Of a stretch of DNA of 64,000 nt, positions 5,339 through 64,000 are shown in pieces (position 1 is the first letter of the stretch; every line of letters starts with the position of its first letter). The stretch is from positions 196,041 to 260,040 of the forward strand of contig CBDBFU010000014.1 in NCBI GenBank assembly GCA_965205025.1, given 5' to 3'. Under the pieces are notes generated by a model. That model did no database searches. It was not told the origin of the DNA and saw nothing but the letters and a program-made list of their open reading frames with translations. The translations under genes were made by a program, and so were the position numbers. This stretch comes from Candidatus Poribacteria bacterium (GTDB lineage Bacteria; Poribacteria; WGA-4E; WGA-3G).

Positions 5339-5417
5339 AGTAACGCCAGTTTGATAATAAATGACATCAGTTCAAGAACATATCCTTTCTTGAAGGGCAC
5401 CCCTTACTGTTCTTGTA

Positions 5418-5439
5418 CCACAAACTTTCCAGTTTGTGG
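5418..5439. repeat. family-A hairpin CCACAAACTTTCCAGTTTGTGG (REP-like; probable terminator of the upstream gene)
   Basis: Perfect 9-bp stem; same unit as 2364-2382, 3474-3492 and 63875-63901; preceded by a second hairpin TTCAAGAAC...TTCTTGAA. Confidence 0.6.
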
Positions 5440-5714
5440 TTTACGTACGCAAACTGGAAAGTTTATGCTACAATGGACTTTTATCAAACTCACTATGATG
5501 AATATGGAATTTGGACAGAATTAGATCAGGATTTCGCTGCAGCGGAGATGTTTAGAGTTTTAGAAAAAGAAGAGGTGGCAGCAGATAATGTCAATAGTTT
5601 TTCTTAAAAAATTAGGAAAATTACAGTCTAATCAGATGAATTTAATTGATATTTGTGTTAAAAATTGGCTTGGTTTGGATTGATGTGGAAATAAAGAAAG
5701 ATTCAATTATAAGT

Positions 5715-7205
5715 ATGAAGACTTCTAAAAAAAAACTATGGAGTGGACGATTTAGTGCTGATCCTACCACACAAACCATATCATTTTCACACTCCATAGA
5801 AGCCGATACACGCCTTATCGGATACGATATTTGGGGTAGTCAAGTTCATGCTATAATGCTTGAACGGCAAGGTATCATATCTGAAGATGATTTACAAGAA
5901 ATCTTACATTGGTTAGGAAGAGTAGAGGAAGAGTTTCAATCTGGCAACTTTACGCTTGATCCAAATAAAGAAGATGTCCACATGAATGTGGAGTCGTATC
6001 TGATTGAGAATGCTGGACGCGAATTTGGTGGTAAACTTCACACAGCCCGTTCCCGAAACGATCAAGTTCTTGTGGACGCACACCTTTATATCCGTGAAGA
6101 GATATTGAATGTTCTGCGCGGTATTACATCATTATGTGAAACTTTCTTGAATATAGCGAAAGCACATGTTGATACAGTGATGCCTGGATACACACATACT
6201 CAACATGCCCAACCCATTAGTCTCGGTTTTTGGGCGACAGCCTATGTAAGTATGTTTCTTAGAGACCAGAAACGATTATTGGCAGCCTACAAAATTGCCA
6301 ATACAAATCCACTCGGGGCATGTGCTTTAGCTGGAACAACCTTTCCAATTGATCGGCAATTTACAACCCAACTCCTCGGTTTTGACAACCCCCATGAACA
6401 TGCTCTTGATGTGATTAGTAGTCGAGATTTTATTGCCGAAACCCTTTTCGCTTTGTCAATGGTGATGGCGAATTTATCTCGTTTAAGTGAAGAGATTGTT
6501 TACTGGACTACTTTTGAATTTGGTATGGCAGCACTTGATGATGCTTATAGTTCCGGTAGTTCAATCATGCCTCAAAAGAAAAATGCTGACATCGCGGAAC
6601 TCACACGGGGACGGACAGGTCGTGTTTATGGTGCTTTAATGGATTTGTTAACAAATCTAAAGGGTTTACCTTTGGGATATAACCGTGATTTTCAAGAAGA
6701 TAAACCCCCATTATGGGAAGCGTTTGACATTGTAAATGCCTGTCTTGAGATATTACCGAATCTTCTTCAAACCACTGAATTCAAGACTGAACGGATGGCT
6801 GAATTGGTGAATGCAAATTTTGCAACTGCAACAGAATTAGCTAATTATCTGGTAAAGGAACATCATATAAGTTTTCGGGAGAGTCATGAGATTGTAGGTT
6901 GGCTTGTGGGTGAACTTGTGAGACAGGAATTGACATTTTCAGATTGGGAAGAAACCCACAGATTACTAAAACAGAAGGAAGTAAACATATCAATCCCGAA
7001 GTTGCAACAGATTTTAGATCCGGCATTGGCACTTCAGAATAACCAGAGTCTTGGAGGTACATCTCCTAAAGAGGTTAGTCGGATGATAGATAACTTTGAG
7101 AAACAATTGGATGATTTTGCAATGAATATCTATACAAGTCAGACAAAAATTGATGATGCATACAAGAAGACGATGCATGAAATTGAAAAGGTGTTTAACA
7201 GGTAG
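5715..7205 (+). CDS. argH: argininosuccinate lyase
   Basis: 'LWSGRFS' N-terminus and the lyase-1 signature 'GSSIMPQKKNADIAEL'. The ORF track starts at TTG 5646; ATG 5715 (MKTSKK) matches typical ArgH N-termini. Confidence 0.9.
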   Translation: MKTSKKKLWSGRFSADPTTQTISFSHSIEADTRLIGYDIWGSQVHAIMLERQGIISEDDLQEILHWLGRVEEEFQSGNFTLDPNKEDVHMNVESYLIENAGREFGGKLHTARSRNDQVLVDAHLYIREEILNVLRGITSLCETFLNIAKAHVDTVMPGYTHTQHAQPISLGFWATAYVSMFLRDQKRLLAAYKIANTNPLGACALAGTTFPIDRQFTTQLLGFDNPHEHALDVISSRDFIAETLFALSMVMANLSRLSEEIVYWTTFEFGMAALDDAYSSGSSIMPQKKNADIAELTRGRTGRVYGALMDLLTNLKGLPLGYNRDFQEDKPPLWEAFDIVNACLEILPNLLQTTEFKTERMAELVNANFATATELANYLVKEHHISFRESHEIVGWLVGELVRQELTFSDWEETHRLLKQKEVNISIPKLQQILDPALALQNNQSLGGTSPKEVSRMIDNFEKQLDDFAMNIYTSQTKIDDAYKKTMHEIEKVFNR

Positions 7206-11541: not shown

Positions 11542-12172
11542 GGTGTGTATAGAATTATATACCATAGGCGTCAATTTAGGAGAAAAAATGTTGTATCCCA
11601 GACCGGTAGGTGCGGTTTCCCAACCGCACTATTGGGCCTCAATTTTAGACTATGACTTTATTGGTTTTGAGTCCCGGGGAATGCCTAAATGGCATTCATA
11701 CCGTTGATTTGGTAGGGACGGAATGTCTATAGAAAAAGGATCAATTAACAAAATGAGTCCCGTAGGGACGGAATGTCTATAGAAGTGGTTATCACCAATA
11801 TCCCAAGCCCCGGTGAATGCCATAAGGCATTCATACCCGGTGAACGCCAAAAGGCGTTCATACCGTTGATTCCTTGATTCGCGGGGCGAAAGGTGTGTAG
11901 AAAACGTATAAACACAAAACACTAAGCCCCGGTGAATGACTAATGAAGATTAACTAAATATTTCGGTAATTCTAATTTTCCCAAACCCGGTAGGTGCGGT
12001 TTCCTAACCGCACTGGATCTTTCTCCAAAATTACCGAATTTAAAAATTAATCTTCATATGTCATTCATACCCGGTGAACGCCAAAAGGCGTTCATACCGT
12101 TGATTCCTTGATTCGCGGGGCGAAAGGTGTATCCCTAAATTGACGCCTATGGTGTGTATAGAATTATATACC
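11542..12172. mobile_element. composite non-autonomous element: 17-bp perfect TIRs (ATAGGCGTCAATTTAGG / CCTAAATTGACGCCTAT) enclosing nested palindromic units, flanked by a perfect 22-bp direct repeat GGTGTGTATAGAATTATATACC
   Basis: Direct repeat at 11542-11563 and 12151-12172; TIRs at 11564-11580 and 12134-12150. The interior holds hairpin families C (GGTGCGGTTTCC.AACCGCAC), D (GAATGCC..A..GGCATTC + ATACCGTTGATT), E (GTCCCGTAGGGAC + GGAATGTCTATAGAA) and F (GCCCCAGCGGGGC + GAAATGTGTGTAGAAAAC), plus a 114-bp family-B MITE (11944-12057) inserted inside a D hairpin that is itself inside an F hairpin. Confidence 0.6.
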
Positions 12173-51918: not shown

Positions 51919-52007
51919 TCATGTATCAGATACTTTGTAGAATCCAACGGATTATTTTATAAAATTCTTGAATTTTAATTATATGGAAGGTATAATTAAG
52001 ATACTAA

Positions 52008-52081
52008 GGGTCCATAGCTCAGTGGTCAGAGCCGTCGGCTCATAACCGACTGGTCCCTAGGTTCGAGTCCTAGTGGGCCCA
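52008..52081 (+). tRNA. tRNA-Met (anticodon CAT; elongator Met versus lysidine-Ile2 is not distinguishable by eye)
   Basis: Acceptor GGGTCCA/TGGGCCC (one G-U), D-arm GCTC-AGTGGTCA-GAGC, anticodon stem GTCGG/CCGAC with loop CTCATAA, T-arm CTAGG-TTCGAGT-CCTAG. It lacks the three G-C pairs of an initiator anticodon stem. Confidence 0.8.
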
Positions 52082-52093
52082 TTCTTCTTTTTA

Positions 52094-52166
52094 GGGGCGT
52101 TAGCTCAGGGGTACGAGCGCTACCTTCACACGGTAGAAGTCACTGGTTCAAATCCAGTACGCCCCA
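52094..52166 (+). tRNA. tRNA-Val (anticodon CAC)
   Basis: Acceptor GGGGCGT/ACGCCCC, D-arm GCTC-AGGGGTAC-GAGC, anticodon stem CTACC/GGTAG with loop TTCACAC, T-arm ACTGG-TTCAAAT-CCAGT. Confidence 0.8.
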
Positions 52167-52223
52167 TTATCAAGAAAACACCCCAATTACCCACTTACTA
52201 TATCTATTTACCCAACAATAACT

Positions 52224-52664
52224 ATGCATGAGCATGAACCCCGTTGGATACAACGTGCAAACAGTTTTAAGAGAGCATTAGCTCAATTGAAATCGGCTGT
52301 TAAACTAAGGGAACAACGTGAACTTTCAGATTTAGAATCACAAGGCTTAATACAAAGGTTTGAATTTACACATGAACTCGCTTGGAAAACTCTGAAAAAT
52401 TTCCTTGAATCTAAAGGTTTGATGAATTTATACGGTTCACGAGACACAACACGGGCAAGAGATGACTTTAGGAATGGATCTGATATTGATTTGACGTTGT
52501 ATGGTGGGGATGAACTAACACACACTGTTGTTTCTCAAATTTCAATTGACCTTGACGATCAATTGCTACCGTATACCATTGATTTATCTATTTTTAAGAA
52601 TCTTCGTAATCCTGAAATGATTAAAGAAATTGAACGCATTGGAAAAATATTCTACAGAAGATAA
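52224..52664 (+). CDS. fused HI0074-like nucleotidyltransferase-substrate-binding domain plus minimal nucleotidyltransferase (MNT) domain
   Basis: N-terminal half 'WIQRANSFKRALAQL...FEFTHELAWKTLKNFLESKG' (HI0074/NTase_sub_bind-like); C-terminal half 'YGS-x13-DIDL' fits the MNT hG[GS]x9-13DhD motif and 'PYTIDLSIF'. Normally these are two separate toxin/antitoxin-like proteins. Confidence 0.55.
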   Translation: MHEHEPRWIQRANSFKRALAQLKSAVKLREQRELSDLESQGLIQRFEFTHELAWKTLKNFLESKGLMNLYGSRDTTRARDDFRNGSDIDLTLYGGDELTHTVVSQISIDLDDQLLPYTIDLSIFKNLRNPEMIKEIERIGKIFYRR

Positions 52665-52808
52665 CGTGAGTTTGATAATAGGTTTATGAACTTCATTTTA
52701 TCTAAAATATTACTCTCATAGACCCGGTAGGTGCGGTTTCCTAACCGCACTGAATTCAAAAATTTGAGTTTTCAAACTCACGTAGAAGATAGATTGTTAA
52801 GGTCATAA

Positions 52809-53579
52809 ATGCAAGAATTCAAAATTGGAAATCACACATATACATCAAGGCTCTTAATCGGCACAGCAGGATATCCGAATTTCCAGATCATGACAGAAGC
52901 AATCTTGGCAAGTGGAGCAGAAATAGCTACTGTTTCGATGCGTAGAGTTAAATTTACTGATTCATCTGAAGAGAATCTATTTACACTTCTAAGTGAACGA
53001 GGAATTACAATACTCCCAAATACTGCTGGGTGTTTTACTGCCAAGGATGCAATCTTAACTGCACAGCTTGCACAAGAAGCACTTGCAACCTCATTGATTA
53101 AACTCGAAGTAATAGGTGATGATCAGACACTATTCCCAGATGTTGAGCAACTACTCTCTGCTGCGGACACTCTTGTAAAGGATGGATTTACTGTTCTCCC
53201 CTATTGCAATGATGACCCTATTACATGTAAGAAATTAGAAGACCTTGGCTGTGTAGCAGTTATGCCGTTAGGTGCACCCATTGGTTCTGGAATGGGGATT
53301 CGAAACCCATATAACATACAAATAATACGTGATAGTGTCAATGTTCCACTTATTGTCGATGCGGGGGTCGGAACAGCATCAGATGCAGCAATCGCAATGG
53401 AATTAGGATGCGATGGTGTATTACTCAACACTGCTGTTGCCAAAGCACACCGACCTGTCCTTATGGCAGAAGCCATGAAGAAAGCTGTAGAAGCTGGCCG
53501 TGCTGCATTCTTAGCAGGACGTATTCCTCGGAAACTCTATGCTACTGCTTCAAGTCCACAAGATGGATTGATAGAGTAA
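52809..53579 (+). CDS. thiG: thiazole synthase
   Basis: '[10 protein letters not shown]', 'IKLEVIGDD', '[28 protein letters not shown]'. Confidence 0.9.
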
Positions 53580-58974: not shown

Positions 58975-59143
58975 TATAATCTAATGTATAACGGAAACCC
59001 ACACTAATACAAACTCACCCAATTCAATTTTAGTCAATCTCCATAGAAAGAATCGGTATTCATCAATTTTAGTAAATTTATGAATTTATCAATGTAACTA
59101 TAAGAGTTCTTAAACTGTTAATTACGATAACTTATCTTGTATC

Positions 59144-59172
59144 TTGACAATTGCAAATCTGAGTGTTATACT
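59144..59172 (+). promoter_or_regulatory. near-consensus sigma-70 promoter (TTGACA - 17 bp - TATACT) driving the MTase gene
   Basis: TTGACA at 59144-59149, exact 17-bp spacer, TATACT at 59167-59172. The first ATG of the track ORF (59137) lies upstream of this promoter, so translation more likely starts at ATG 59230 (AGGA 7 nt upstream). Confidence 0.6.
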
Positions 59173-59229
59173 CACTTTGTCCAAGAAAAATCCTTCCAAA
59201 ACTATCCTAATTTCATAGTAGGACTTAAA

Positions 59230-60655
59230 ATGTTGCTAAATCTCAAACAAGCAAGTCAATGGGCATCAGACTATCTGAATAAATCCGTCACCACAGCTAA
59301 CATCACTTATCTAATTCAATACGGAAAGATTGACACTATTTCCAATAATGGATCTAAACTAATTCCTTTAGATAGTCTTAAAGAATATTATAGTCAATAT
59401 TGTCGAGAAATGCGTTGGAAAAACGAACTCGGTGAAGACCTTAATTGGGAATTATCTTTCGAAAAATATAAGGAAGCAGAGACTACTAAACATGTCCACC
59501 GTCTACATCCATATAAAGGTAAATTTATACCTCAGTTGGTAGAATATTTTTTAGATCAACATACAGACAACTTTAAGAATGATATATATTTCCAACCAGG
59601 GGATGTTGTGCTTGATCCATTTTGTGGAAGTGGAACAACCTTAGTCCAAGCAAATGAATTAGGTTTACACGCGATAGGCATAGACATTTCTGTTTTTAAT
59701 TCATTCATTAGTAATGCAAAAGTTGAGAATTTCAACCTAACGAAATTGTATGAGGAATCAAAAAAAATAACATCCGCTCTTAAAGTAAAAGTGGCATCCT
59801 CAAATATAGTTGATTTTGATACTAAACTATCCGATATCTTGACAAAATTTAATAATGAGTATTTTCCAATATCCTTCAAAAAACGAGTCAGGAATGGTGA
59901 AATTAATCAAAAGAAATATGGAGCAGAAAAAGAAGCTGCATTTTTAAATACATATCAAAAACTTATAACAGAGTTTGAAATTGATATTCAAATGCCCACT
60001 GATTCAGCACGCTTTATGAAAAAATGGTATCTTCCACGGGTAAAAGCAGAGATAGAATTTGTCTATAATGAAATATGTAAGGTGGAAGATATATCTATAA
60101 AAAACGCTCTAATGCTTATTCTAAGTCGTACTATTCGTTCATGTAGAGCAACAACCCACGCAGATTTAGGCACATTACGGAATCCAGTTACCACAACTTA
60201 CTTTTGTAGAAAACATGGTAAAGTTTGTAAACCACTTTTTTTCAATTTTAGGTTGGTGGGAACGGTATTGTAAGGATAGTATTGAACGATGGAATGAATA
60301 TGGAAAGTTAAAGACGGATACACATCAATATTGTTTAACTGGGGATTCTCGTACAATAAACATCCTAACCATGTTAGAACAGACTAATAAGAAATTAGCA
60401 GAAATTGTTCAGAATAGACGAATAAAAGGTATTTTTACAAGTCCACCTTATGTTGGTTTGATTAATTACCACGAACAACATGCTTATGCTTATGATCTTT
60501 TTGGATTTAAAAGGTTAGACGAATTAGAGATTGGACCTCTCTTTAAAGGAAAGGGTAAAGATGCAAGAGAATCTTATGTCCAAGGTGTCTCAGAAGTTCT
60601 TAGGAACTGTAAACGATTCTTAGCAGATGATTATAATGTCTTTATCGTAGCCTAA
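59230..60655 (+). CDS. alpha-class DNA methyltransferase (N6A or N4C; motif I DPFCGSGTT ... motif IV SPPY), interrupted by a +1 frameshift at a T7 homopolymer (60236-60242)
   Basis: Track ORFs 59137..60273 and 60215..60655 are two frames of one gene. The second frame is open from 60170 and contains 'TSPPYVGLINY'. The only overlap region contains TTTTTTT, and one T fewer (T6) would fuse the frames. This is either phase variation, a sequencing indel, or a recent pseudogene. Confidence 0.6.
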
Positions 60656-60810: not shown

Positions 60811-61581
60811 ATGCTATTACAAAGACGCGAAATGATTAAAGAAAAGATAAAGGAGTGTCTGCGTGATAAATTTCGAGAATATAATCCGGAAACAGACAAT
60901 ATGCCTTTTCATTATCGACTACTCGGAAGAGATAGGATGGCTTTATACTCGTTCATTCATTCAATCAATACCAAATTCGGAATTTCATTTTATGAACCAG
61001 TTGCAATTGCTTTGGCAAAAGAAAGGTTTAAAATAGCAGACACACAAGTTAAACCTGGAGACAAGATAAGTCTTGAAGCACATCAAAGAATACAGACAAT
61101 AATGAACGGGTTAAGTACTGCAGAAAGAAATCCGAACAAGTCATTAGAAATTCAAGAGATAAGGGAAGTCTGTACTTCAGGAAAATTAGAAGACGTTAAA
61201 CTCACTAAAGTTGATGTCTGGTTAGAAACAGATGAAGGTGAATTGTTTCTAATTGACTTTAAAACTGTAAAACCTAACAAAGGTGATTTTCAGAAATTTA
61301 AGAGGACATTACTTGAATGGAGCGCTGCTGAATTAGCAAGAAATCCGGATGGTGTTGTTAATGCTTTAATCGGCATACCATACAATCCTTATGAACCGAA
61401 ACCATATCAACGATGGACTCTTAAGGGTATGTTTGATCTTAAACATGATATATTGATAGCAGAAGATCTATGGGATTTTATTGGTGGACAAGGAAGTTAT
61501 GATGCATTATTGAATGCATTTGAACAAGCAGGGATAGAGTTAAGAAATGAAATTGATGAGTATTTTGCAAATTTTAAATGA
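60811..61581 (+). CDS. putative type II restriction endonuclease (PD-(D/E)xK candidate) partnered with the upstream MTase
   Basis: 256 aa, no other family signal. 'LTKVDVWL...ELFLIDFKTVK' fits a hD ... hhh(D/E)xK core. The size and position downstream of an MTase suggest an R-M pair. Resemblance to the TdeIII family is only a vague recollection. Confidence 0.4.
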   Translation: MLLQRREMIKEKIKECLRDKFREYNPETDNMPFHYRLLGRDRMALYSFIHSINTKFGISFYEPVAIALAKERFKIADTQVKPGDKISLEAHQRIQTIMNGLSTAERNPNKSLEIQEIREVCTSGKLEDVKLTKVDVWLETDEGELFLIDFKTVKPNKGDFQKFKRTLLEWSAAELARNPDGVVNALIGIPYNPYEPKPYQRWTLKGMFDLKHDILIAEDLWDFIGGQGSYDALLNAFEQAGIELRNEIDEYFANFK

Positions 61582-63741: not shown

Positions 63742-64000
63742 TTAGTTTGTGCAGTATTTCAAGCCATGCATAAAAAATGTTGATGGGATAAACATTTTTA
63801 GAAATGGTATAACGCCAGTTTGATAATAAATATGTCAGCTCGATAAATAGTATTTTGTCCTGAGAATAGTCTTTGTAGCACAAACTTTCCAGTTTGTGCA
63901 CTCTGGTGTAAACTAAAAGTTTGGGTTACAATGTGTCTTATCAAACTCACGTCATAATAATTAAACGATCTACAACTTGTGATAGTAAAAATCTAATGGT

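Follow-up and report, generated by a model that had tools for sequence, protein, structure and literature searches.

An HEPN-MNT reading frame upstream of thiG in Candidatus Poribacteria is probably a deletion-fused remnant of a type VII toxin-antitoxin module

HepT and MntA of Shewanella constitute a type VII toxin-antitoxin (TA) system (Yao et al. 2020, PMC7641770), and members of the same two families are known from H. influenzae, namely HI0073 (MNT, PDB 1NO5) and HI0074 (HEPN, PDB 1JOG). The closest solved relative of both halves of the protein described here is the HEPN-MNT type VII pair lpg2920/lpg2921 of L. pneumophila (PDB 8XDJ, 8XEH, 8XEO; Jin et al. 2024, PMC11586414). In its HEPN protein, the RX4HXY motif (R98, H103, Y105) belongs to the loop between alpha4 and alpha5 and includes Y105 as the residue that is AMPylated, the proposed RNase site consists of Q44 and E47 in helix alpha2, R73 mediates tetramer as well as MNT contacts, and the dimer interface is chiefly formed by alpha1 and alpha2 (PMC11586414). 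Single-chain forms can be functional, as described for FhepTA (SO_1440, 276 aa), a fused MNT-HEPN protein (2026, PMC13000451). FhepTA carries MNT followed by HEPN, both complete and joined by a short linker, as well as the RX4H motif with its Tyr; it is subject to self-oligoAMPylation of a Tyr beside the RNase motif, and its family is found on mobile elements (PMC13000451).

Here, we analyzed a 64-kb stretch of Candidatus Poribacteria DNA (the window), in which an earlier note had pointed out a single 146-aa ORF with HEPN and MNT sequences downstream of a tRNA-Met/tRNA-Val pair. Both the ORF and the tRNA pair are present as described (Table 1). We propose, with a probability of about 0.85, that the ORF is a deletion-fused remnant of a two-gene type VII TA module that is non-toxic and probably inactive.

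Table 1. Features of the window around the chimeric ORF
Feature	Position	Strand	Evidence or content
Putative promoter, sigma-70-like, TTGAAT-17-TATAAT	51968-51996	+	10/12 matches, best promoter-like site of the region
tRNA-Met (CAT)	52008-52081	+	ARAGORN; Rfam RF00005, 64.1 bits
tRNA-Val (CAC)	52094-52166	+	ARAGORN; Rfam RF00005, 65.8 bits
Chimeric ORF, 146 aa	52224-52664	+	HEPN (HepT-like) residues 1-~78, in frame with MNT (MntA-like) residues ~37-106
HEPN-derived part	52224-52456	+	residues 1-78; helices alpha1, alpha2 and start of alpha3
Deletion junction, CACGGGC	52450-52456	+	counterpart of the 7-bp direct repeat CACGTGC
MNT-derived part	52457-52664	+	G-loop end, DxD (D87, D89), strands beta2-beta4, helices alpha2-alpha3
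Target-site duplication, left copy, AGAAGATA	52656-52663	+	8 bp
MITE-like insertion, 120 bp	52664-52783		12-bp terminal inverted repeats ACGTGAGTTTGA, internal hairpins
Target-site duplication, right copy, AGAAGATA	52784-52791	+
thiG (thiazole synthase, 256 aa)	52809-53579	+	PF05690 on orthologues

Two family matches, two incomplete domains

Both halves of the ORF showed significant matches to their families, the HEPN half to PF08780 (E = 4.7e-20, 72.3 bits versus a cut-off of 31.8) and the MNT half to the Polbeta family PF18765 (E = 8.9e-09, 35.8 bits versus a cut-off of 26.9). The strings on which the two-domain claim had been based are also present (FEFTHELAWKTLKNFLE at residues 46-62, PYTIDLSIF at residues 116-124). 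The claim thus holds for both family identities, and it does not hold for the completeness of either domain. Compared to the L. pneumophila structures, the similarity extends over residues 5-85 for HEPN (E = 2e-20) and over residues 69-145 for MNT (8XEH_E, E = 2.7e-10). Unlike the L. pneumophila pair, the window has one ORF, in which HEPN residues 79-141 (RX4HXY loop, alpha3-alpha5) and MNT residues 1-36 are deleted.

The HEPN half is 89% identical to the intact orthologue P0004 over residues 1-85. It covers positions 1-70 of the 126 positions of PF08780, all of which are covered by P0004 (1-126/126); the HI0074-like helix bundle noted previously is therefore incomplete, with two and a bit of the five helices left. 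TIGR01987, which together with PF08780 detects the N-terminal half, scored 40.3 bits and remained under its cut-off of 55.8, so that the ORF is an incomplete member, unlike HI0074 itself. The structure of HI0074 (1JOG) was a weak match to the predicted model of the window protein (rank 11). Profile coverage, TIGR01987 score and model match all argue against a complete five-helix HEPN domain. The RX4HXY motif (R-x4-H-x-Y) is absent from the ORF; in P0004 it reads R98-NLTP-H103-T-Y105 and lies inside the segment that is deleted in the window. Numbered in common with L. pneumophila, Q44, E47 and R73 are kept in the window protein, whereas R98, H103 and Y105, as numbered in P0004, are gone. Since Q44, E47 and R73 are kept, the statement that the catalytic site was deleted is true for RX4HXY, not under the model of PMC11586414.

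Residues 78-146 correspond to an MNT/MntA nucleotidyltransferase without its first 36 residues, with the native alpha1, beta1 and GS lost. This half shares 85-86% identity with P0008 and P0009 over residues 69-146. The intact P0011 reached 67.5 bits against Polbeta, in comparison to the value given above for the window, and the scores of the window ORF for PF01909 (18.1 bits, cut-off 21) and NF047752 (19.2, cut-off 60) were under threshold. The nominal PF18765 coverage (4-90/93) is misleading, as residues 58-77 derive from the HEPN gene; their resemblance to the MNT "hhLYGSR" strand is due solely to LYGSR being encoded in both genes. The catalytic Asp residues D87, D89 and D120 are all present, and the GS dipeptide is now provided by the HEPN-derived LYGS. 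The spacing reported previously as YGS-x13-DIDL is actually GS-x14-DxD (S72 to D87); the G-loop of the window protein thereby reads G71-S72-x14-D87-x-D89, versus GSX10DXD in the L. pneumophila MNT (PMC11586414). Where the survey detected the motif, GS-x10-DxD was the form in most sequences, and x14 was seen in no other. A complete Pol-beta-like fold, with alpha1 and a four-stranded sheet, was not found in the ORF.

A second HEPN or MNT gene was not detected anywhere in the 64-kb window (tblastn). Two ORFs at 60215-60655 (146 aa) and 60811-61581 (256 aa) equal the chimera and thiG in length by coincidence; they represent a split N6/N4 methyltransferase and a neighboring gene, and they have no HEPN/MNT similarity.

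The ancestral gene pair and its deletion

Orthologous metagenome contigs of Candidatus Poribacteria share the neighbors of the ORF (mutS2-dnaG-rpoD-tRNA-Met-tRNA-Val ... thiG) and have HEPN (141 aa) and MNT (103-106 aa) as distinct genes that overlap, with HEPN coming first. Separate genes were found at this exact position in L001-L004, L009 and L010, which answers the question of two genes that had been raised for this ORF and bears out the suggestion of a degenerate TA remnant. In L001-L003, HEPN is located at 6001-6426 and MNT at 6413-6733. Like the L. pneumophila pair, the Poribacteria genes overlap and encode the short MNT type without the C-terminal alpha4 helix. HEPN precedes MNT in every intact locus and likewise in 50 of 50 two-domain proteins surveyed. 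This is the native gene order of the subfamily, and not the reverse of the usual order, as had been assumed.

In DNA alignment A1, a single clean gap sets the window apart from L001-L003, corresponding to a deletion of 292 bp between flanks that are collinear with the orthologues. Each of the two intact genes contains a single copy of the sequence CACGTGC (in L001, 6227-6233 for HEPN and 6519-6525 for MNT, 292 bp apart). When we simulated a deletion from CACGTGC to CACGTGC in L001, a 441-nt ORF with the length of the window ORF was obtained, and the junction ...GSRDTTRARDD... was matched. We rejected the 7-bp repeat as a deletion hotspot, since chance alone should give about 16 repeated 7-mers in a gene pair of 733 bp; we read the repeat as a mark of the mechanism, not as evidence of a special site. 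At the same locus, L005 has a different deletion of 324 bp, which left a 34-codon HEPN stub out of frame together with an intact MNT. This deletion is independent of that in the window. The chimeric ORF is still open and has acquired neither a stop nor a frameshift since the deletion. Judged from these alignments, it arose recently by deletion from a standard HepT/MntA-type pair.

A conserved fused family was looked for by a full HMMER scan of 1.84 billion representatives and by a second homologue search seeded with P0121. The exact 146-aa protein is absent from every other public assembly, and no close full-length homologue of the chimera was detected, the best match being 66% identical with a different junction. 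About 25 other truncated chimeras exist in public data, each with its own junction (HEPN profile end 36-135, MNT profile start 9-67), several of them joined at the shared GSR motif. Every comparable chimera has intact two-gene relatives at 90% identity or more, and P0121, the most similar architecture, likewise has separate genes as its nearest relatives, one for MNT (97%) and one for HEPN (92%). Given the scattered junctions and the separate genes as nearest relatives of each chimera, we rejected a conserved fused family. Within the reach of these searches, the window fusion is a one-off and not a conserved architecture. Full-length HEPN-MNT single chains of the same subfamily and the same order do occur in metagenomes (P0123, 246 aa; P0128, 245 aa; P0272, 243 aa) and derive from gene pairs of this kind that became fused. 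Proteins of this type keep PF08780 1-124, Polbeta 1-88, RX4HXY and GSx10DxD, features that are missing from the window protein, which is shorter by about 100 residues.

The thiG neighborhood and a MITE-like insertion

The HEPN-MNT unit has thiG as its constant downstream neighbor across Poribacteria (window thiG versus the L007 fragment: 86% aa identity). In most loci examined, the unit lies 12-33 nt upstream of thiG, whatever stands further upstream, and in L013 and L014 the called thiG start is about 135 nt downstream of it. The tRNA-Met was found at the same place in L001, L005 and L009, whereas other Poribacteria have the arrangement thiO-thiS-HEPN-MNT-thiG without tRNAs there. The pair travels with thiG and not with the tRNAs. 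This speaks against the tRNA integration hotspot that had been proposed, as does the lack of an att repeat and of an integrase: the tRNA-Val 3' end has no second copy in the window, even at up to 3 mismatches, and no integrase is encoded among the neighbors (mutS2, dnaG, rpoD, thiG).

The palindromic unit noted downstream of the ORF was confirmed as a hairpin (GGTGCGGTTTCCTAACCGCAC, 52730-52750), and it is now placed inside a 120-bp MITE-like insertion. The element shares inverted-repeat ends, an 8-bp target duplication, empty orthologous sites and strong secondary structure with MITEs and REP-like hairpin elements (fold of -41.2 kcal/mol, z = -8.3). The empty site in L001-L005 consists of a single copy, AGAAGATAG, with 16 nt from the MNT stop to the thiG ATG. 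In the window, the TAA stop codon of the ORF is completed by the first A of the element. Within the window, the hairpin GGTGCGGTTTCCTAACCGCAC has two further copies at 11609 and 11993 (0 expected by chance), and two further elements with the same ends as the 120-bp insertion are located at ~5344-5494 and ~63813-63951. Unlike in a typical MITE family, these two elements share the ends only and differ in their interiors, and the parent transposase was not identified here. This genome has an active MITE-like family whose ends and target duplication are defined.

The sigma-70-like site upstream of the tRNA genes is invariant across all five aligned loci (A1 columns 70-105). It is the putative promoter of the tRNA pair and, from its position, may also start transcription of the ORF and thiG. 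Between the ORF and thiG no intrinsic terminator was found, the hairpins of the MITE-like element being without a T tract, and an Rfam search at the gathering threshold found three tRNAs only, with neither a TPP riboswitch nor any further known RNA near thiG. Co-transcription of the ORF with thiG appears likely to us.

A different explanation, which we regard as doubtful, is that the ORF has stayed open because it is translated as a leader for thiG and not because of its product. In that case, thiG would be transcribed from upstream of the TA unit, and toxin-inactivating deletions would be tolerated only if the promoter and the 3' thiG junction are preserved, with in-frame survivors being favored because continued translation avoids transcriptional polarity on thiG. 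The short distance to thiG in most loci is consistent with such a role, as are the absence of any terminator-like site from tRNA-Val to thiG and of a strong promoter-like site directly before thiG, and the occurrence of several in-frame remnants at this position (the window, P0001, P0003 and probably P0002). However, the remnant in L005 persists although it is out of frame, one in three deletions is in frame by chance, and retrieval by protein similarity favors in-frame survivors. Additionally, the structured 120-bp element between the window ORF and thiG argues against tight translational coupling.

Formation of the chimera and its possible activity

The deletion-fused remnant can be accounted for by the following course of events. 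The ancestral upstream gene would have encoded a HEPN RNase toxin (HepT/HI0074 family) and the overlapping downstream gene an MNT adenylyltransferase antitoxin (MntA/HI0073 family). The 292-bp deletion, with its end points in the repeat CACGTGC (translated as -T-R-A- in the toxin but as -S-R-A- in the antitoxin), took out HEPN codons 79-141 and MNT codons 1-36. As the genes were in different frames and the loss is 3n+1, the two remaining parts came in frame and formed one 146-aa ORF. The homology of both halves, the ancestral two-gene state, the deletion with its junction and its independence of other deletions are shown by the comparisons above, and we infer microhomology-mediated deletion or illegitimate recombination as the route. 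A tract of the window at ~52281-52453 is nearly identical to the L001-like sequence; it may be an isolated import that ends at the junction, which would favor illegitimate recombination facilitated by homology, or one of many ordinary recombination tracts. The product has lost the RX4HXY loop of the toxin, including the Tyr that is AMPylated by the antitoxin, over half of the five-helix bundle, and the first helix and strand of the antitoxin, and its GS-to-DxD catalytic loop is lengthened from 10 to 14 residues. Located between the upstream promoter and thiG, the relic is probably still transcribed and translated. Loss of activity of the chimera is suggested by its truncated sequence, which makes residual activity unlikely.

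An active product was nevertheless considered. The HEPN alpha1-alpha2 hairpin could serve as a dimerization or targeting module on a working nucleotidyltransferase core, possibly as an antitoxin working in trans, which would dock on paralogous HepT toxins encoded elsewhere in the genome and either AMPylate or block them. We judge this to be improbable. It is consistent with the intact, in-frame ORF, with the retention of DxD and the third Asp and of the HEPN-gene LYGS where the MNT's own LYGS was, and with the retention of Q44, E47 and R73, the HEPN dimer interface being mainly alpha1/alpha2 (PMC11586414). Further, the substitutions specific to the window in the MNT part, 7 non-synonymous (all conservative) to 8 synonymous, are below the neutral expectation of about 3.6:1, indicating that much of the window branch was under purifying selection, although this count spans time before and after the deletion and cannot date selection relative to it.

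In the AlphaFold2 (AF2) model, pLDDT exceeds 90 for the N-terminal hairpin, in favor of an active product. In contrast, residues 1-72 superpose on half of the L. pneumophila HEPN 8XDJ at 1.0 A (72 of ~134 residues), the C-terminal half matches the MNT 8XEO only at 6.9 A rmsd, strand beta1 is not formed, the sheet has two strands versus four in the native MNT fold, and pLDDT is 62-66 across residues 70-90. With both domains truncated and a pTM of 0.49, the model consists of two loosely related pieces, which argues against the compact single chain with an intramolecular HI0073-HI0074-like complex that had been suggested. A first AF2 run with the 12-sequence alignment A5 (mean pLDDT 56.8) was not used in this fold comparison, and the 48-sequence alignment A3 was dropped as input because MAFFT had forced HEPN C-terminal halves onto MNT columns.

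An active single chain is also at odds with the G-loop of 14 residues instead of the usual 10 and with the uniqueness of the allele, which belongs to no conserved family and differs in its junction from every comparable chimera. The window protein shares both domain superfamilies with FhepTA; it differs in carrying HEPN before MNT, both truncated, in lacking the motif and the Tyr, and in being a one-off, so that it does not qualify as a FhepTA-type protein. Since the acceptor Tyr is lost, FhepTA-like self-regulation (PMC13000451) would be impossible. A cognate HEPN toxin as neighboring substrate for the MNT part is lacking as well, the acceptor region of the toxin being deleted and no other HEPN or MNT gene being present in the window.

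Finally, the deletion could stem from an error of assembly or sequencing in an organism that really has two intact genes, which we consider very improbable: the source is probably a metagenome-assembled or draft genome and no other public assembly contains the exact protein, but a repeat of 7 bp does not make assemblers collapse the sequence, the reading frame runs on through a clean junction between collinear flanks, and comparable but different deletions occur in independent assemblies (L005, P0001, P0003, P0121).

The deletion-fused remnant is mainly a correction, as the annotation "NTase_sub_bind + Polbeta in one protein" invites the reading of a new fused architecture. Beyond this, the TA pair has been passed on vertically as part of the thiamine (thiS-thiG) cluster throughout Candidatus Poribacteria, an unusual mode of inheritance for a module that is supposed to be mobile. 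The toxin of the pair was knocked out independently at least two times at the same locus in sister lineages. A more far-reaching idea from the sequences, which we think is quite unlikely to be correct, is that the chimera acts in trans as an "anti-addiction" antitoxin, its hairpin docking the still catalytic MNT core onto paralogous HepT. If true, selection would have favored the repeated HEPN(N)-MNT(C) collapse (~25 independent cases) as a way to disarm type VII TA modules, including the one embedded in the Poribacteria thiS-thiG operon. Together with the recurring chimeras in metagenomes, the independent knock-outs provide a natural series for studying the decay of type VII TA modules.

Origin of the chimeric ORF

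The observation in the earlier note of a 146-aa ORF with a HEPN-like (HI0074-type) part followed by an MNT-like (HI0073-type) part, behind a tRNA-Met/tRNA-Val pair, was essentially correct. Both halves matched their families in Pfam searches. PF08780 (NTase_sub_bind, the HI0074/HEPN family) aligned to residues 10-78 (E=4.7e-20) with profile positions 1-70 of 126 only, and PF18765 (Polbeta, minimal nucleotidyltransferase) aligned to residues 58-146 (E=8.9e-09). The NCBIfam models TIGR01987 (40.3 bits, cut-off 55.8) and MntA NF047752 (19.2 bits, cut-off 60) detected the ORF below their curated cut-offs. All motifs read earlier are present, with a GS-to-DxD spacing of 14 residues instead of 13.

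The top database matches were separate, unfused Candidatus Poribacteria proteins, namely a 141-aa HEPN (P0004, 89% identity over query residues 1-85) and MNT proteins of 101-106 aa (P0008, P0009, and P0011, 83-86% identity over residues 69-146). The contigs encoding P0004 (L001-L004) share with the window the gene order mutS2, dnaG, rpoD (535 aa), tRNA-Met, tRNA-Val, followed there by HEPN (6001-6426) and MNT (6413-6733), which overlap by 14 nt in different frames, thiG (256 aa), and a 406-aa gene. Two loci from an NCBI Poribacteria assembly (L009 and L010) are arranged identically. The two halves were thus once two genes, which the earlier note itself had named as evidence against its single-chain reading.

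Aligned with L001-L003 at the DNA level, the window is collinear save for a single gap on its side. In L001, CACGTGC occurs in HEPN at 6227-6233 (ACA ACA CGT GCC, T-T-R-A) and again, 292 bp apart, in MNT at 6519-6525 (GGA TCA CGT GCA, G-S-R-A). In silico removal of this interval resulted in a 441-nt ORF, equal in length to the window ORF and with the identical junction peptide ...LYGSRDTTR-ARDD...; at the junction (52450-52456), the window reads CACGGGC. The collinear alignment and the simulated deletion together show that the ORF arose by a 292-bp deletion within a two-gene HEPN-MNT pair. This event took out HEPN residues 79-141 and MNT residues 1-36, bringing the two frames together because 292 = 3n+1.

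Directly left of the junction, HEPN nucleotides 57-230 showed 1/173 differences to L001 and none at 57 third positions, compared to a divergence of 7-11% in rpoD, thiG, and the 406-aa gene and of 11.9% (25/210 nt) in the MNT-derived part. The intact loci L001 and L009 differ by 12.1% in this segment and by 18.7% in the HEPN 3' half, indicating mild general conservation only; scaled from these values, about 11 differences would be expected (Poisson P(<=1) ~2e-4). The simplest reading would be that this tract was imported recently by recombination from a lineage resembling L001. The right end of the import could be concealed in the deleted interval or could be the deletion junction itself; the latter would amount to homology-facilitated illegitimate recombination, anchored by homology on the left and joined by microhomology on the right.

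Coordinates of the features (window positions unless a locus is named)
Feature	Position	Strand	Remark
tRNA-Met(CAT)	52008-52081		upstream of ORF; ARAGORN, Rfam
tRNA-Val(CAC)	52094-52166		upstream of ORF
Chimeric ORF, 146 aa	52224-52664	+	ATG to TAA, uninterrupted
Near-identical tract	~52281-52453; L001 6058-6230		abuts deletion junction
MITE-like element, 120 bp	52664-52783		between ORF stop codon and thiG; absent from five orthologous loci (L001-L005)
thiG	52809-53579		downstream of ORF
HEPN-MNT upstream of thiG	L006 5001-5333; L007 2059-2544; L011-L014 4001-4755; window 52224-53579		window interval includes thiG

Truncated domains and recurrence of chimeras

Legionella pneumophila HEPN carries RX4HXY in the alpha4-alpha5 loop, where Y105 is poly-AMPylated by MNT, and MNT carries GSX10DXD within its beta1-beta2 loop (PMC11586414). 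Intact P0004 has R98-x4-H103-x-Y105, numbered as in L. pneumophila HEPN (8XDJ), the closest solved homologue. Missing from the chimera are, on the HEPN side, the RX4HXY loop, alpha4, alpha5, and the greater part of alpha3 and, on the MNT side, alpha1 and beta1. Because both genes encode LYGSR, by coincidence, the HEPN-derived LYGS71-72 occupies the place of MNT's own GS. The resulting catalytic loop, GSx14DxD, is four residues longer than GSx10DxD; among surveyed sequences in which the motif was found, the spacing was x10 in most and x14 in no other. MNT D87, D89, and D120 are kept, as are HEPN Q44, E47, and R73. Jin et al. proposed that Q44/E47 form, across the dimer, an RNase site dependent on Mg and that R73 is the key contact for the tetramer and MNT (PMC11586414), and we regard retention of these three residues as the main caveat against calling the toxin catalytically dead.

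The AlphaFold2 model (34-sequence alignment; mean pLDDT 84.4, pTM 0.49) comprised two long helices (7-31 and 36-63, pLDDT > 90), a weak segment at 70-90 (pLDDT 62-66), and only two beta strands. Using Foldseek, residues 1-72 superposed on half of 8XDJ at 1.0 A, and the C-terminal half fitted the MNT structures 8XEO/8XEH_E at 6.9 A only. Nothing in the model pointed to an HI0073-HI0074-like complex within one chain, and with this pTM and MNT fit the suggested single-chain assembly is not borne out.

The exact protein has no other record in the databases searched. The best full-length match, P0001 (161 aa, 66% identity), has a different junction (...EVWMD/NGSDIDL...), and P0002 (198 aa) and P0003 (110 aa) each have their own. 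On the sister contig L005, which matches the window in gene order and in several variants, this locus has instead undergone a deletion of 324 bp. What remains there (5898-6306) is a HEPN stub of 34 codons followed by out-of-frame sequence (57-aa ORF in all) and a complete 101-aa MNT, by its sequence an orphan antitoxin. Neither allele is derivable from the other, so there were at least two independent losses of the toxin.

Scanning all 1.84 billion representatives gave 2346 relatives. Among 388 retrieved sequences, both domains occurred in 50, and HEPN preceded MNT in all 50 as well as in the intact two-gene loci; the order is therefore not the reversed one claimed earlier. About 25 of the 50 are truncated chimeras, whose junctions fall at many different positions in either domain. 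P0121 (144 aa, junction YGSR/AKGNY) is closest to our chimera in architecture, and the sequences most closely related to it are an MNT (97%) and a HEPN (92%) encoded separately, so it is likewise a recent accident. We therefore rejected a conserved fused family; judged by their sequences, the truncated chimeras are recurring decay products.

About 20 of the 50 are full-length proteins of 228-291 aa, and RX4HXY and GSx10DxD are both kept in most of them. These single-chain metagenome clusters (e.g., P0122, P0123, P0128, P0272, P0275, and P0280) could be genuine fused toxin-antitoxin (TA) proteins or frameshift artefacts. In the fusions known to be functional, FhepTA (276 aa), both domains are complete and stand in the order opposite to that of the chimera and of these full-length proteins (PMC13000451).

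A compact single-chain HI0073/HI0074 switch is thus unsupported, given the truncated domains, missing RX4HXY, GSx14DxD loop, and scattered chimera junctions. The fallback offered in the earlier note, a degenerate TA remnant, proved right in view of the intact orthologous loci and the 292-bp deletion. We conclude that the chimera belongs, in decayed form, to the known type VII HepT/MntA family; residual function seems improbable.

Flanking elements and linkage to thiG

In L001-L005, 16 nt separate the MNT stop from the thiG ATG. The 120-bp element of the window ends in perfect terminal inverted repeats of 12 bp, ACGTGAGTTTGA, and is flanked by an 8-bp duplication of its target, AGAAGATA (52656-52663 and 52784-52791). 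Its interior is strongly structured (-41.2 kcal/mol, z = -8.3), and its first A restores the ORF stop codon (TAA vs TAG in the orthologues). Two further elements (~5344-5494 and ~63813-63951) share its ends (..AGTTTGATAATA ... TTATCAAACTCACG) and have a different interior hairpin. The palindromic unit described downstream does exist as a hairpin, but it is part of this MITE-like insertion, which is unrelated to the TA module.

The hairpin GGTGCGGTTTCC(C/T)AACCGCAC has three copies in the window (11609-11629, 11993-12013, and 52730-52750). Further short palindromic units at 11660-11900, e.g., GGTGAATGCC...GGCATTCATACC and GTAGGGACGGAATGTCTATAGAA repeats, suggest a cluster of REP-like elements at 11.6-12.0 kb. 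Elsewhere, overlapping ORFs at 59137-60273 (378 aa) and 60215-60655 (146 aa) correspond to the 524-aa N6/N4 DNA methyltransferase of L005, which suggests that a frameshift has divided this gene in the window, whether as a pseudogene or by sequence error; the 256-aa ORF that follows may be the cognate restriction enzyme.

The constant neighbour of the HEPN-MNT pair is thiG, starting 12-33 nt downstream in most loci. In more distant Poribacteria (L006, L007/L008, and L011-L014), tRNAs are absent from the surroundings and the pair lies within thiO-thiS-HEPN-MNT-thiG, the arrangement of most lineages; in the window's clade it lies behind rpoD-tRNA-Met-tRNA-Val, its upstream side having been rearranged. 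No repeat copy of the tRNA-Val 3' end was found within the window and no integrase among the neighbouring genes. A tRNA integration hotspot, as envisaged earlier, is therefore not supported. Since thiG is constant and the tRNAs are not, the pair has long resided upstream of thiG and has been inherited vertically.

The window tRNA-Met has one extra C (GGTCCCTAGG vs GGTCCTAGG) relative to the L001-L005 copies and is still called by ARAGORN and Rfam; the tRNA-Met/tRNA-Val spacer is hypervariable among loci.

The sole strong promoter-like site (TTGAAT-17-TATAAT, 51968-51996) lies ahead of the tRNAs and is invariant in all five aligned loci, with no terminator-like site between tRNA-Val and thiG. 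Transcription of thiG through the remnant is plausible and, if true, would explain the remnant's persistence. More notable than the chimera, though peripheral to it, are the MITE, the toxin deletions that arose repeatedly and independently, and the phylum-wide thiS-[TA]-thiG linkage; it is unusual for a TA module to stay linked to a thiamine-biosynthesis gene by vertical inheritance over the long term.
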